Origin: Dictyostelium discoideum
Lineage: Eukaryota
DNA: 64,000 bases
Reading direction: 5' to 3'
Assembly: GCA_000004695.1 (NCBI GenBank)
Contig: CM000155.2
Location: forward strand, 2,592,001-2,656,000
The first letter of the stretch is position 1; each line of letters starts with the position of its first letter. This document shows positions 17,929 through 37,954 of this stretch, in pieces. Under the pieces are notes generated by a model, which searched no databases, was not told the origin of the DNA, and was given only the letters and a program-made list of their open reading frames with translations. The translations under genes and the position numbers were made by a program.

Positions 17929-18345
17929 TTCTTAATTAATAGTTTGTTTTGTTTTGTTTTTTTTTTTTTTTAAATATGATAAATTTTTTTTAATTTATAA
18001 TTTTTTTTTTTTTTTTTTTAAAAATAAATAAATAAAAAAAACAATAATATGGAGTTTTAAAAAAGATTGTTTTTCCTTCTTTTTTTATTTAAATGGGGGT
18101 ATTAAATTTTAAATTATTATAAAATTAATCATTTGTAAATTTTCATTGGTAAATTTGTTTAATAATTTTTTACAATAATAAAATGACGTATTTTTAGGAA
18201 AAAAAAAAAAAAAAANAAAAAAAAAAAAAAAAAAAAAAAAAAACAAAAAATTAATATTAATAAAAAATTATAATTTATTTTTTAATGTTTATTATTTGTT
18301 TTGTTAAATAATAAACTTGATGGATTAAATTATTATTGATATTAA

Positions 18346-30902: not shown

Positions 30903-31950
30903 CAAGATGATGATTATAAAGATTATAATAATAATAATGAAATTTTATTAAATGAAATTAAAGAAATTATTTCAAGATTTATGATTTTAAATGTAAAGAA
31001 TTTACCATCACCATTTATAAAAGAGAATGAACAATTATCAAGTGATAATATGAAATTATTAAAGATTGCAAGTAAATCATTGGTACATCTTTCAAAAGAA
31101 CAATTGCAACAATGTTTAGTTTTATTAAGTGGTATTGTTGATATTGACTCTGAAGCTAAAATTCAATATCTTTATGTTTTGGTATTAGCCAATGGTAATG
31201 GTCCATTTGGTAAGGTTACATTATCAAACTTTTACAAAATTAAGTCTTGGTGTTTCTCTTCAACTACCGCTGAACAACAAAGTAAAGTTTTATCAATTTT
31301 ACCCTATATCTTAACTAAACCATTAATTGAAAATCAAAATTCATTTACTTTTGATTCAATCTTAAATGATATCTTTGATTCAATCACACTAACTCAAAGA
31401 CAACATGTAATTGGTTTAGAATTACTTTCACAATTAATTTCAACTCAAATTAATAATTCAATCTTTGAATTTAATTCTTTCTTTAATTTATATTTTAATG
31501 TAAATATATATATTGTTTTTTTTTTATATTCTTATATATATTTTTCATATTTATTAATTTTTTTTTTTTTTTTAAATTTAATAGTTTGATAGTAATGAAA
31601 TAAAATATAATCAAATCAAATCAATTTGTAATACTTCAATATCATTTAGATATTTAGAATTGTTACCATACTATTTACAAGTATTTTATAATGGAAAATT
31701 AAATAATACAATCAATACCACTATTAAAGTTACTGATTTTATTGGAAAGTTATCTTCATTATTACAAAACAGATCATCAGTATTAGGTTTAAAAACTAAA
31801 TCAATTATTTTCTCTTCAATTTTAACATTAAATCAATTGAAATTTATTGATTCATCAGTAAATAGCGCAAATGATAATCAACTTCAACAATTGAATATCT
31901 TTAATCTTTATAAGATTTTAAAATCTTCCCCTTCAAATAATAGTAATTAA
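25515..31950 (+). CDS. very large (~2040 aa) alpha-helical repeat protein, poly-Q/poly-D tracts; family not identified
   Basis: Model: join(25515..25712, 25932..31499, 31585..31950). Introns are GTAAGT..TTTAG and GTAAAT..AATAG, both phase 0. The track's M at 25977 and 31660 are TTG codons inside exons. It contains D22 encoded by (GAT)n at 30841-30905. Confidence 0.7.
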
Positions 31951-32307
31951 TAAAATAAAAGAAATTCGATAATTCTATTTTTTATAAACTTTATATTTTT
32001 TTTTTAAAAGGTAATTGCTTATTATTTAATTTTTTTTTTTTTTTTTTAATGTTGACCAACATAATAAATATTGGTTGCCCCTAAAGGAAATAATCAACTA
32101 ATAGAGGTTTATTTATGAATTTTTAATTTTTTAAAATTATTATTTTGGTTTTGATTAAAATATACTAGATTAAAAAAGAATTTTGATTTTTAAAAAAGAT
32201 GTTATAACTATTATAATTTGTGTCTTTTTTTAATGCTTCTTTCGATGGGCCTGTCCAAGTTACTTTTTTAATTATTAAAATTAATCCAAATTGTGGTTTT
32301 CCTAATC

Positions 32308-32320
32308 GGGAATCGAACCT
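32308..32320 (-). promoter_or_regulatory. external B box for tRNA-Ala copy 1
   Basis: Minus strand GGTTCGATTCCC lies ~31 bp downstream of the tRNA 3' end. The internal T-loop (GGGATCGATACC) is a degenerate B box. Confidence 0.6.
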
Positions 32321-32350
32321 TTGATCCCATTTTTGATGATTAAAAATAAA

Positions 32351-32423
32351 TGGAGAAGAAGGGTATCGATCCCTTTACCTCTCGCATGCTAAGCGAGCGC
32401 TCTACCATCTGAGCTACATCCCC
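32351..32423 (-). tRNA. tRNA-Ala (anticodon AGC), copy 1
   Basis: GGGGATGTAGCTCAGATGGTAGAGCGCTCGCTTAGCATGCGAGAGGTAAAGGGATCGATACCCTTCTTCTCCA. The G3:U70 alanine identity pair is present. There is a U6-U67 mismatch in the acceptor stem. Confidence 0.85.
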
Positions 32424-32492
32424 TTTGATGATTTTCTTTTTTAAATACTCGAATAGGACGACATTTTTATTAATTACAATTAAAAAAACAAT

Positions 32493-32575
32493 TGCAAGAG
32501 GCGAGATTCGAACTCGCGAACCGAATGGATGAGATCTTAAGTCACACGGATTTAACCAGACTTTCCTACCCTTGC
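32493..32575 (-). tRNA. tRNA-Leu (anticodon TAA), long variable arm
   Basis: GCAAGGGTAGGAAAGTCTGGTTAAATCCGTGTGACTTAAGATCTCA + variable arm + GCGAGTTCGAATCTCGC + CTCTTGCA. Anticodon loop CTTAAGA. Confidence 0.75.
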
Positions 32576-33721
32576 TTTAGATGAAAACTTTATTTTTTAA
32601 GAAATTTTAGACCACCCTAAAATGAGATTGAAAACAACCATCTCTTTTTTTGATTATTTCATTTTTCATATAAAAAGACTAATATATTTCAATTATAATT
32701 TTATTAAAATAAGCAAACATTATACAAATTTAAATTAATATTTTCAAATAATTATTTTATTAATCATACCACTCATCTAACAATAAATATAAATTAATTT
32801 TCATTTCGGATTAATATTCTAATATTCTCATTGTTAAAACTATAAACAAATATACAAATTAAAAAAATTTAAATTATTTCCCCCTGATCTCAACACAAAA
32901 GTCAAATTTAAATGGTCATATGATTTTGTTCTTGAGAATGAGATCTCTGTATTACCATTTGAATTTGATTTTTGTGTTGAGATCGGGTTACAAAACCATG
33001 TTTTTTTATTGGCCCGTAAGAATTTCTTGCAGATTTGATTATCCAATTCAACAAAAAAAATTTGGAGTTAAAAGCGTGTAAGGCGTTGTGGTGGATGATA
33101 AATGAATGGAATATAACGAAAGCAAAAGTTCTTCGTTTTTACATCAATTATTAAATTAAAATATTAAAATATTAAAATTATTAAATTTTTTAACTCAATT
33201 CTTTTAATTATTTATTTCAAAATTTGTTTTAATAGAAATTATATATTCTTAAATTAGTATATTATTATAAATATTTTATTATAGTAAAAACTTTCAACTG
33301 ATTTTACATAGTATAAAATGTAAATTAAAAAATTGCTATTGTCAGTTTTAAAAGTATATTACTCAGCAATGAAAATTGTTATAAATAAATTAAATTTCTA
33401 TAAAAGGTAAGATTGAACTTGTTATGCAGTAGTCTTTTACAATTTCAATTTTAATATCTTTGATTTTTTTGTTGTAGTTGTTTTTATTACAAATTAGTAG
33501 AGATCTTTTGTTGATTGCAGTGTGAAGTTTTTAAACTTTGTTGATGTAGTCTAAGTTTACAGATTTTAACCATTTTTTGAGTATAATATAATAGTCTAAT
33601 GTTTCATTTTCAATTCTTCTTCATTAAATTTAATTTAAAAAAAACATATTGTATTAAAATGATTAAGTAAAATATATTAAATAAAGATATTGTTAAATTA
33701 AAGGATTAGGTGATACTTTAT

Positions 33722-33733
33722 AGAATCGAACCT
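33722..33733 (-). promoter_or_regulatory. external B box for tRNA-Ala copy 2
   Basis: Minus strand AGGTTCGATTC. Same spacing as copy 1. Confidence 0.55.
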
Positions 33734-33761
33734 TTGATCTAAATTTTGTGATTAAAATAAA

Positions 33762-33834
33762 TGGAGAAGAAGGGTATCGATCCCTTTACCTCTCGCATGC
33801 TAAGCGAGCGCTCTACCATCTGAGCTACATCCCC
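33762..33834 (-). tRNA. tRNA-Ala (anticodon AGC), copy 2
   Basis: Identical mature sequence to copy 1, with a conserved ~45-bp 3' flank. The two copies are ~1.4 kb apart. Confidence 0.85.
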
Positions 33835-34117
33835 TTCGATGAATATTTATTTTAAATACATAGAAATATACATAAAAATTTTAAAAAAAATTAATTCCAA
33901 ATTTTTCATAATAACAAAACAACAATTTTTGGTATTATAAAAAATTAATTCCAAATTTTTTATAATAACAAAACAACAATTTTTGGTATTAATTATAATA
34001 TAGTTTTTTTTAAAGTTTTATTTTTTTTTTTTTTTATTTTTTTTTTTTTAATTATTATTATTTTTTTTTTTATTTTTTTTTTTTTATTTTTTTAATCAAT
34101 TAATTTAAATAAATAAT

Positions 34118-34835
34118 TTAATTACTTAAAGAGTGACTAATTTTAGTGGCAACAGCTAATTGAGAACGAGTTAGAGAGGATAAATAAACGATCATCAATA
34201 AATCTTTGACACTATTGTTGATAACTTTATCCATGACTTGAGCATTTGCTTTTGGTAAGGCTTGAATAGTTTTAGCGAGGAAACGACCAAGACGTGGATC
34301 ACCTTGAATTTCACCTTTTTCAACAGACTCTATATAGGAGGTGATGGATTCGAGCATTTCGTCGAGTTTTGTTAAAGAACCTTGAAGTGATTCCAATTCA
34401 GAGAGTAAACTAGTTGATTGTTGATCGTATTTAGTTTGAGCGATTGATTCGAGACCAGCATTCTCTGCTTCAAATGTTAATATCTCTAATGGAAGTTGTG
34501 AAAAGTATGAACCCAATGATGATTCTGGATTCAAACTGAGATTATGTGCCATATAGGCATGAATACCCATAGTATCATTTGTAAGTCCAGTATCAACAGT
34601 CAAATGAATTGGTGTGCTATTACCCATTTCATCACGATAGAAATTATTAATATGAACTGAATTTTCATTAATATCATTACCAGTTGCATACCACCCAATA
34701 ATTGGTTCTCTTGGTGATGATTTCAAATGTAAATCTAACATTTTTCTTTGATATTCCATTTCAACTGCAATCTAAAATAAATAAATAAATAAATAAATAT
34801 TGTTAATTATTTTATAATAAATCATTTAATAAAAT

Positions 34836-35688: not shown

Positions 35689-36554
35689 ATGAATACATTC
35701 ACAAATGATGGTAGTTTTATGGAACAATTTCTAAAAAGACAAGTATGGTCACAAAAATAAAAATTAAAACAATAATTATTTTTTATTTTTTTTTATTTTT
35801 ATTTTTTTTTTTTTTTGTGTGTGGTTTCCTTCTTTTATTAATTTTATTTTAATTTTTATTATTATTAGAGATTAGCAAATGAAGACTCAGAGGATCAACA
35901 ACAACAACAACAGCAGCAACAACAAAGTGGATATGACCAAAATAATTCATATTATGGTGGATCATATGATCAAAATTCATACTATGGACAACAACAACAA
36001 CAACAACAACAACAGCAACAACAACCACCACCACCACCACCTCCACCAGGTGAAGAACAGTGGGGTCAGAATCCATATGGTGGTGGATTTTCACAACAAC
36101 AACAACCACCACCACCACCACATCATCATCACCAACAACAACAATATCACCACCAACAACAGCATCAACAACATCAACAACAACAACAACAAGGTGGATA
36201 CATGGGAGGAAATGGACCAAATCAAATGGCGCCACACTATCAAAATAAAGGTGCAGGTGGACAATTGGAACCAACAAAAATCGTTTGGGCAGGTAATATT
36301 AATCCAGAATCAACAGAAGAAGAAGTACGTCATTTATTTTCACAATTTGGATACCTTCAAGCTATTAAAATCATACCAAATAAACAATGTGCTTTCATTA
36401 CTTTTGCAGATGTAAATTGTGCAATTCAAGCTCAATTTAATTTAAATGGTACAATATTTAGAGGTTTACCTTTAAAACTTGGTTTTGGTAAAGTAAGTAA
36501 AAAATTAAAATTAAAATTAAAATTAAAATTAAAATAATTTTCTAAATTTTTAAT

Positions 36555-36611
<57 letters not shown>

Positions 36612-37954
36612 CTCAAATAAAGGTTGAAAATGCACCACAAGCAAATTTTGGAGGTGGTAGATTTGATCAATATAATAAACCACATCAAGAAGAAACACCA
36701 ACTAAAAATTTATGGTTAGGTAATGTAAATTCAAATGTTTCATACGAATTATTAAAACAAATTTTTGATCAATTTGGAAATGTAGATACAATTCGTATTT
36801 TACATGGTAGAGGTTGTGCATTTGTAAATTTCTTTACAGTTGAATCTGCTGCAGCCGCAAGAAATGGTTTAAATGGTACAATGGTATGTGGAATGCCATT
36901 GAAAATTAATTTTAGAAAAGAGGAAGATTCTAGACATATAAGTGGATTTAGAGGTGGTGATAGAGATAGTAGTGGTAATGAAGGTGGATTTAGAGGTGGT
37001 CCTCCAGGTAATATTGGTGGTGGTGGTAGTGGAGAAGGTGGATATAGAGGTGATATGAATAATAGAGATAGTAGAGAAAGAGGTGGAGGTGGAGGTGGTG
37101 GTGGTGGTGGTAGTAGTGATGGTAGACCACCAAGACCATTCAGAGAAAATCAAATCCCATTACCAGCACCACCACCACAATCACCACAAGAACAACAAAT
37201 CATTGATAAACTTGCGGAATATGTAGCAAGAACAGGACCACGTTTTGAAACTTTTACATTTGAAAAACAAAGAAATAATCCATTATTTTCATTCTTAAAA
37301 CCACGTTCACCCGCAAATGATTATTATAAATGGAAACTATGGACAATTAGAAATCCTGATACTCATTCATCAAATAATGATACAAATAATGAGACTCAAT
37401 CACCATCAAATCAACAAGAAAATCAACAACAACAACAACAACAACAACCACAACAACCACCACAACAAGAAAATCAACAACAACAACAACAAATTAATTA
37501 CCCATCATCATTTTTAAATGAAAATGAAGTTAAAGAATTTAAAGATATTTTAGAAAAATTAACACCAAGTAAACCATCAGTTACAAATTGTAAGAATTGG
37601 ATAATGTCACATACAGAGAATTCGTTAGAGATAATATCGATAATAGTTGTAAACTTTCAAACGATATCATTAACATTTGCACAGAAATTGAATATACTAC
37701 ATGTGTTAAATGATTGTTTACATAATAGTGTCACCAAAAGAAGTTCTCCAAATGATTGGATGTCTGATGATTTCGCTAGATCAATTAAAGATTATTTACC
37801 ATTTATCATTGGTAGTACAGGTAGTGGTGAATCACCTGATAATCAAGAGAAAGTTTTAAAAGTTTTATCAATTTGGGATAATCAAAAATTTTATCCAAAA
37901 GATTTCATTGAATCTTTAAGAAGTGATGTAACTGATAATGAAGATTCTCAATAA
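35689..37954 (+). CDS. RNA-binding protein with two RRMs, RGG-rich region, SURP/SWAP module and C-terminal CID/RPR domain (U2SURP/SR140-like), ~669 aa
   Basis: Model: join(35689..35742?, 35869..36492, 36623..37954). Exon 2/3 introns are GTAAGT..AATAAAG; the second contains a T70 tract. RRM1 is KIVWAGNINPESTEEEVRHLFSQFGYLQAIKII. RRM2 is NLWLGNVNSNVSYELLKQIFDQFGNVDTIRIL. SURP is IIDKLAEYVARTGPRFETFTFEKQRNNPLFSFL. The 18-aa ATG first exon is tentative. Confidence 0.75.
36541..36612. repeat. poly(T) ~70 nt inside intron of the RRM/SURP/CID gene
   Basis: Read directly from the sequence. Confidence 0.9.

Follow-up and report, generated by a model that had tools for sequence, protein, structure and literature searches.

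Few high-confidence miRNA loci are known in Dictyostelium discoideum, and their origin is an open question in the Amoebozoa. While 27 miRNAs have been reported in D. discoideum, seven were re-confirmed in a 2024 re-annotation (PMC11014262). The seven bona fide D. discoideum pre-miRNAs are intergenic, measure 83-133 nt and have folding energies of -56 to -88 kcal/mol (PMC11014262, Supplementary Table 4). Amoebozoan miRNAs undergo fast turnover and are mostly species-specific, and the young ones are said to stem from hairpins of unusual length that have at most one mismatch (PMC11014262). The pri-miRNAs of D. discoideum are capped Pol II transcripts (PMC6161686) that start at a G which follows a T-rich tract and lies 116-281 nt before the 5p sequence (PMC6161686, section 2.8).

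Long terminal inverted repeats that fold into hairpins are also a property of MITEs and of the thug-S elements of Dictyostelium, which are multicopy and from which miRNA-like small RNAs are known in D. discoideum. Among plants, Allen et al. (2004) reportedly described young MIRNA genes that arose when a target gene underwent inverted duplication. Template switching, finally, gives rise to perfect hairpins and to miRNA-like loci de novo, and the arms of inverted repeats are homogenised or expanded by it (PMC10710096, PMC13100816). The hairpin described below is previously unreported within the literature that we searched, and most likely represents a lineage-specific locus of the inverted-duplication or proto-miRNA type.

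Structure and setting of the hairpin

The hairpin lies in a window of 64 kb (the whole stretch of D. discoideum DNA that was analysed), which has a GC content of about 22% and contains ORFs with long poly-Q and poly-N tracts; intergenic DNA of this genome is 86% AT. It is located in a spacer bordered by a DUF3730-family gene and the gene for eIF3 subunit F (eIF3f). The last exon of the latter is the ORF at 34118-34759(-), with 100% identity to the D. discoideum protein. Three tRNA genes are found at most 1.5 kb from the hairpin. Two of these, tRNA-Leu(UAA) and the second copy of tRNA-Ala(AGC), flank it and are both encoded on the minus strand, and their ARAGORN coordinates bear out the originally predicted placement of the hairpin between them. 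The features of the spacer are as follows, with position 1 as the first letter of the window:

ending at 31589, plus strand: DUF3730-family gene, left border of the spacer
32351-32423, minus strand: tRNA-Ala(AGC), from ARAGORN/Rfam
32493-32575, minus strand: tRNA-Leu(UAA), from ARAGORN/Rfam
32883-32987, plus strand: full hairpin, 105 nt and 48 bp, top fold of the window
32883-32920, no strand: left arm of the DNA inverted repeat, 38 nt, from an inverted-repeat search
32921-32949, plus strand: apical part, a small imperfect inverted repeat that pairs only via G:U on the plus strand
32950-32987, no strand: right arm of the DNA inverted repeat, 38 nt, from an inverted-repeat search
33762-33834, minus strand: tRNA-Ala(AGC) copy 2, from ARAGORN/Rfam
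ending at 34118, minus strand: eIF3f (eIF3 subunit F), right border of the spacer, convergent with the DUF3730-family gene

The prediction of a near-perfect 32-bp inverted repeat with three mismatches held up, as both 32-mers were found and no such pair occurred in 100 shuffles. Its right arm is located at 32955-32986 as predicted, but the left arm occupies 32884-32915, one base below the start that had been given for it. The description as two separate 32-bp arms around a 38-nt loop was correct as far as the arms are concerned, but these are longer than proposed and most of the loop bases pair as RNA. The DNA arms are 89% complementary and 29 nt apart. As plus-strand RNA, the sequence forms an unbranched stem of 48 pairs (29 A:U, 12 G:C and 7 G:U), interrupted by a C.U 1x1 mismatch (32917/32953), a 3-nt bulge (32946-32948) and a 4-nt loop (32932-32935).

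The free energy of this structure is far beyond that of shuffled sequence. The plus-strand RNA folds at -60.3 kcal/mol (z = -11.5, with none of 200 shuffles as good), the minus-strand RNA at -43.5 kcal/mol (z = -8.2) and the single-stranded DNA at -30.1 kcal/mol (z = -9.0). Among 12,780 sliding 110-nt folds on both strands of the 64-kb window (mean -11.3, sd 5.8), the hairpin ranked first, and it was also the strongest fold across 86 kb of related Dictyostelium loci. The hairpin is real and far beyond chance. The runner-up (-46.1 kcal/mol at 37081-37190(+)) lies in coding repeats of 51% GC and the third fold (-39.7 kcal/mol at 36021-36130(-)) in repetitive coding sequence, likewise of 51% GC. 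The coding sequence underlying these two folds consists of glycine-rich and valine/asparagine-rich repeats, and both folds are probably a product of composition and repetitiveness and not of RNA structure.

The identical hairpin is present in an independent assembly, L003 (GCA_054883475.1), which rules out an assembly artefact. Identity between this contig and the window is 99.3% over 9.2 kb and reaches 100% over 31500-34200. Unlike this near-identical contig, the assembly of the window is gapped, with a 100-N run at 2700-2799 and a single N at 18216.

Several observations concern the tRNA genes of the window. The two tRNA-Ala copies have about 139 nt in common at 93% identity (32310-32448 versus 33723-33859), which identifies the pair as a local duplication that brackets tRNA-Leu and the hairpin. 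A B-box-like motif is found 30-42 nt downstream of both tRNA-Ala(AGC) genes (32309-32319 and 33722-33732; GGAATCGAACC and AGAATCGAACC on the plus strand), which we take to be the 'external B box' typical of Dictyostelium tRNA genes. At 5197-5279(-), ARAGORN called a 'tRNA-???' with a four-base anticodon (gtag), where the Rfam tRNA score was 57.8 bits. This may be a mis-parsed tRNA with an intron or a long variable arm.

Distribution and decay among related lineages

Orthologous spacers were reached through eIF3f in nine assemblies (L001-L009). The tRNA-Ala and tRNA-Leu genes in the spacer are kept in all nine, and sequence homologous to the hairpin was identified in only four of them (L001-L004), both by blastn and with an nhmmer profile. 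These searches found no hairpin homolog in the assemblies of D. firmibasis, of two 'D. cf. discoideum' and of two D. citrinum. Profile matches in the eIF3f exon of the outgroups had E-values of 0.6-3 and were judged to be due to chance.

A neighbour-joining analysis of 4025 ungapped columns beside the spacer resulted in the local tree (L006,(L001,(L003=window,(L002,L004)))), with 200 of 200 bootstraps for each node. Any two assemblies of L001-L004 diverge by 0.8-4.5% in mostly genic DNA, a large value for one nominal species that suggests the presence of cryptic lineages. At least one of these four assemblies is labelled D. discoideum. All four have the same eIF3f protein as AX4, and their tRNA spacers show length differences of 2.1-2.7 kb.

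An intact hairpin is limited to the window lineage and L003. In L002 and L004, the left arm and the loop are found at about 93-94% identity to the window, and the right arm is almost wholly deleted, with a short 'GATT' remnant in its place. L001, the outgroup to the other three, has a right arm with six differences and a degenerate left arm that contains insertions and lacks the first ~12 nt. The apical part is present in all four lineages. None of the orthologs in L001, L002 and L004 has a fold better than shuffled sequence (z of +0.4 to +0.8). Considering that the right arm is common to L001 and the window, and the left arm to the window, L002 and L004, both arms are ancestral to the clade, and the palindrome was consequently damaged twice independently. 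The loss of the structure in the three closest lineages further indicates that the hairpin is dispensable.

A larger change was observed at 6150-6889 of L001, which corresponds to approximately 32530-32905 of the window. Here, tRNA-Leu is cut after 45 nt, and the spacer as far as the middle of the left arm has given way, by insertion or rearrangement, to about 700 bp of unrelated DNA that is richer in GC. Beyond the replaced spacer lies a gene call of 391 aa.

Directly to the right of the hairpin is a GC-richer island (33000-33135) that is 72% column-identical over the four lineages. Its conserved blocks are CATGTTTTTT, ATTCAACAAAAAAAATTTGGA and GTGGATGAyAwATGAATGGAAT, and the island had neither an Rfam nor a protein match.

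Origin of the palindrome and competing explanations

On balance, we favour the explanation that the hairpin is a non-mobile, single-copy DNA palindrome that arose by inverted duplication in the D. discoideum clade, probably through template switching during replication, and that is dispensable and decaying. A small pre-existing inverted repeat, still visible as the apical part, may have been the seed from which template switching would have extended the long arms. This event would have taken place in the common ancestor of L001-L004, within the tRNA-rich and fast-evolving spacer that is bordered by eIF3f and the DUF3730-family gene. Afterwards, one sister lineage deleted most of the right arm and another scrambled the left arm. 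Any transcript across the locus would form the 48-bp stem, better on the plus strand, with the size and stability of the substrates of the DrnB/RbdB Dicer complex. The locus would then most likely represent raw material for small RNAs (a proto-miRNA or hairpin-siRNA) and not an established gene.

The arms are in reverse-complement relation, as a model of template switching or inverted duplication requires. At three right-arm G:U sites of the window, the base found in L001 would form a Watson-Crick pair with the left arm, which is consistent with an originally perfect palindrome. Like template-switch hairpins (PMC10710096; PMC13100816), the locus is a near-perfect local inverted copy beside its source, is lineage-specific and shows no hallmarks of a mobile element, and a small older inverted repeat sits at its apex. 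Unlike in those cases, the event is not recent, as it predates the split of L001-L004, and its switch points are unmappable. The pre-duplication state was found in none of the genomes compared, with the outgroups L005-L009 having no alignable spacer, and a template-switch origin is undemonstrable for this reason.

As in young plant MIRNA genes, a long near-perfect foldback would be the presumed start of a miRNA gene. Those genes differ from the hairpin in that no similarity to protein-coding sequence was detected for it, the eIF3f exon matches mentioned above being chance. Four of the six frames at 32830-33145, a GC-richer stretch, are open for 66-76 codons. A concatenated search of 5.8 billion proteins (E <= 10) identified no protein homolog for these frames, and the idea that a coding gene gave rise to the palindrome by inverted duplication is therefore unsupported.

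The stem is asymmetric between the strands. All seven transition-type mismatches are G:U on the plus strand and would be A.C on the minus strand, which is why the plus-strand RNA folds better than its counterpart. Over the whole RNA stem, G:U accounts for seven of the eight non-Watson-Crick positions on the plus strand and A.C for none. Given a transition fraction of 0.41-0.49 in the clade, a random substitution in a Watson-Crick pair results in a plus-strand wobble in about 25% of cases. Seven wobbles out of eight thus correspond to p ~4e-4, although the true significance is uncertain because it was the folding program that selected the pairing of the four inner wobbles. For the DNA-defined arms alone, the fraction is three of four (p ~0.05, one strand). 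Moreover, a derived G-to-T change at 32927 in the window lineage turned a G.G mismatch into a U:G pair, and the left arm and loop are 93-94% identical between lineages, compared to 71-80% for the surrounding spacer. The wobble pattern hints at selection for the plus-strand RNA stem, which pure neutral decay would not predict, and is suggestive of plus-strand RNA as the relevant molecule, if any RNA is. A potential compensatory change at G32886:C32984 (A:T in L002/L004) was not counted, as it hinges on the alignment of the 'GATT' remnant, which is moved by affine-gap alignment.

The wobble pattern, the change at 32927 and the conservation of the left arm and loop would fit a young, genuine miRNA or hairpin-siRNA gene, which is the main rival but a rather doubtful explanation. 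Such a gene would be transcribed by Pol II on the plus strand from a T-rich promoter about 230 nt upstream, and its 48-bp stem would be cut by DrnB/RbdB into RNAs of ~21 nt, which would enter an Argonaute and repress targets elsewhere in the genome. The 'miRNA-precursor size' originally ascribed to the hairpin holds in D. discoideum, since its 105 nt and -60.3 kcal/mol are within the ranges of the seven bona fide pre-miRNAs given above. We further compared it to the miRBase, Axtell and MirGeneDB criteria, as used in PMC6161686 and PMC11014262. Folding energy was -0.50 to -0.57 kcal/mol/nt over 105-121 nt (threshold < -0.2 kcal/mol/nt), and the whole stem contains one mismatch and one bulge, where a 21-nt duplex may contain up to five mismatches and three bulges with at least 60% of bases paired. 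Like the DrnB/RbdB-dependent ddi-mir-1176, -1177, -7097 and others, it is a single unbranched hairpin of ~100 nt with about -0.57 kcal/mol/nt, intergenic as are most D. discoideum miRNAs, and it is restricted to one lineage, as are most amoebozoan miRNAs. Long near-perfect hairpins are, in addition, described as the signature of newly evolved amoebozoan miRNAs (PMC11014262). Conversely, its stem is longer and more perfect than is typical for D. discoideum miRNA precursors, with one true mismatch, and was destroyed in the sister lineages.

Three T runs near the hairpin are relevant to its possible transcription:

32645-32652, plus strand: T7 run then G, 231 nt upstream of the hairpin base, candidate start-site motif
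33003-33009, plus strand: T7 run, 16 nt past the right end of the hairpin and conserved in each of the four lineages (CATGTTTTTT)
33052-33060, minus strand: T8 run then G, ~65 nt upstream in minus orientation, candidate minus-strand start site

The T7-G at 32645-32652 is compatible with the published start-site motif and would support a miRNA gene, but the motif is unspecific in AT-rich DNA. An equally good T8-G site is found on the minus strand, in a block conserved in all four lineages (ATTCAACAAAAAAAATTTGGA), and because a T-run-G occurs on both strands, the motif cannot discriminate between them. A scan for bacterial-type promoters and terminators was uninformative, as the host is a eukaryote.

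Published small-RNA data argue against a miRNA gene. The hairpin is absent from the D. discoideum miRNA and candidate lists that we searched (PMC6161686, PMC4894637, PMC11014262). Its sequence had no match in Liao 2018, Meyer 2016, Edelbroek 2024 and Hinas 2007, or among the 17 miRNAs of Avesson 2012 as given in later papers, and tiles of the hairpin sequence had no match in a full-text literature search. Its absence from deep small-RNA-seq tables covering growth and development makes an abundant, precisely processed miRNA less likely, while being still compatible with low-level or imprecise hairpin-siRNAs. Only tRNAs passed the Rfam gathering thresholds, and at E <= 10 the spacer matched generic miRNA-shaped models only (15.6-26.6 bits versus thresholds of 44-100). 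No 21-mer of the hairpin matched elsewhere in the 64 kb with two or fewer mismatches. The original reading as an RNA gene therefore stands for the shape of the hairpin but not for its status as a gene, considering the missing list and Rfam matches and the loss of the structure in three relatives.

Inverted duplication and RNA function could also be combined. The locus would then be a miRNA or hairpin-siRNA gene in its birth-and-death phase, which arose by inverted duplication in the D. discoideum clade and came under incipient selection for the plus-strand stem in the laboratory-strain lineage. We consider this combination unlikely. If true, the sister lineages would be natural knock-outs, with the right arm deleted in L002 and L004 and the left arm scrambled in L001.

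It is very unlikely that the hairpin represents a MITE, an alternative named in the original prediction, or a decayed DNA transposon (e.g., thug-like) that inserted near tRNA genes and whose terminal inverted repeats have fused. Nearly the whole element is an inverted repeat, as would be expected of such an element, and thug-S provides a precedent for miRNA-like small RNAs. However, the bases flanking 32883 and 32987 (TTTCC and TTACA) do not form a target-site duplication, and the hairpin flanks, ending in ...TTATTTCC on the left and beginning with TTACAAAA... on the right, contain no TA, TTA, TTAA or 8-bp direct repeat. The search for further copies, proposed to tell a MITE from an RNA gene, identified the hairpin as single-copy in ~150 kb of Dictyostelium DNA (86 kb from related loci in addition to the 64-kb window). 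When contigs from metagenomes and prokaryotes were scanned with 20-mers, nine matches resulted, all of which were 20-21-nt chance matches in unrelated, GC-richer contigs. Unlike MITEs and thug-S, the hairpin shows no presence/absence polymorphism of a whole element: the relatives lack one arm or the other, which were lost separately, and have neither a clean empty site nor a full element. Their flanks are co-linear, and the neighbouring island is co-linear and homologous in all four lineages.

Less probable still is a DNA-level cis element, in which a cruciform could bind proteins, pause replication or form a barrier that keeps transcription of the convergent genes and of the tRNA cluster apart. 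The stable fold of the single-stranded DNA and the position between convergent Pol II genes and three Pol III genes would agree with such a role, but the structure was lost in sister lineages with the same gene and tRNA arrangement, and mismatches are tolerated only as G:U in RNA and not as DNA pairs. To our knowledge, no such cis element has been described in Dictyostelium.

The Pol III small ncRNA genes of Dictyostelium have a DUSE (consensus [A/T]CCCA[C/T]AA) about 60 nt upstream or internal A/B boxes, and lack an internal T-run terminator. Despite the three tRNA genes within 1.5 kb and the downstream T7 run, it is highly improbable that the hairpin is a tRNA-derived element or a small RNA transcribed by Pol III, as ARAGORN and Rfam identified no tRNA-like or other known RNA at the hairpin, A/B boxes matched only at tRNA genes and external B boxes, the closest match to a DUSE lies over 6 kb from the hairpin, a Class I RNA motif was not found near the locus, and the plus-strand stem contains T4 (32924-32927) and T5 (32969-32973) runs that would truncate Pol III transcripts without read-through, with a T7 run also following the minus strand. 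The Pol III-rich neighbourhood that had been pointed out is thus real in its tRNA genes, but it is context and not mechanism.

Meaning for small-RNA loci in Dictyostelium

Under the favoured explanation of a decaying inverted duplication, the locus is a datable case of a Dicer-substrate-type hairpin arising and vanishing in AT-rich intergenic DNA. Four related genomes display its intact, right-arm-deleted and left-arm-degenerate states. If small-RNA reads are lacking, the hairpin would be a clean neutral palindrome and a false positive for structure-based miRNA predictors. If DrnB-dependent reads map to it, the locus would be a new miRNA restricted to particular strains, and natural null alleles of it would already be at hand.
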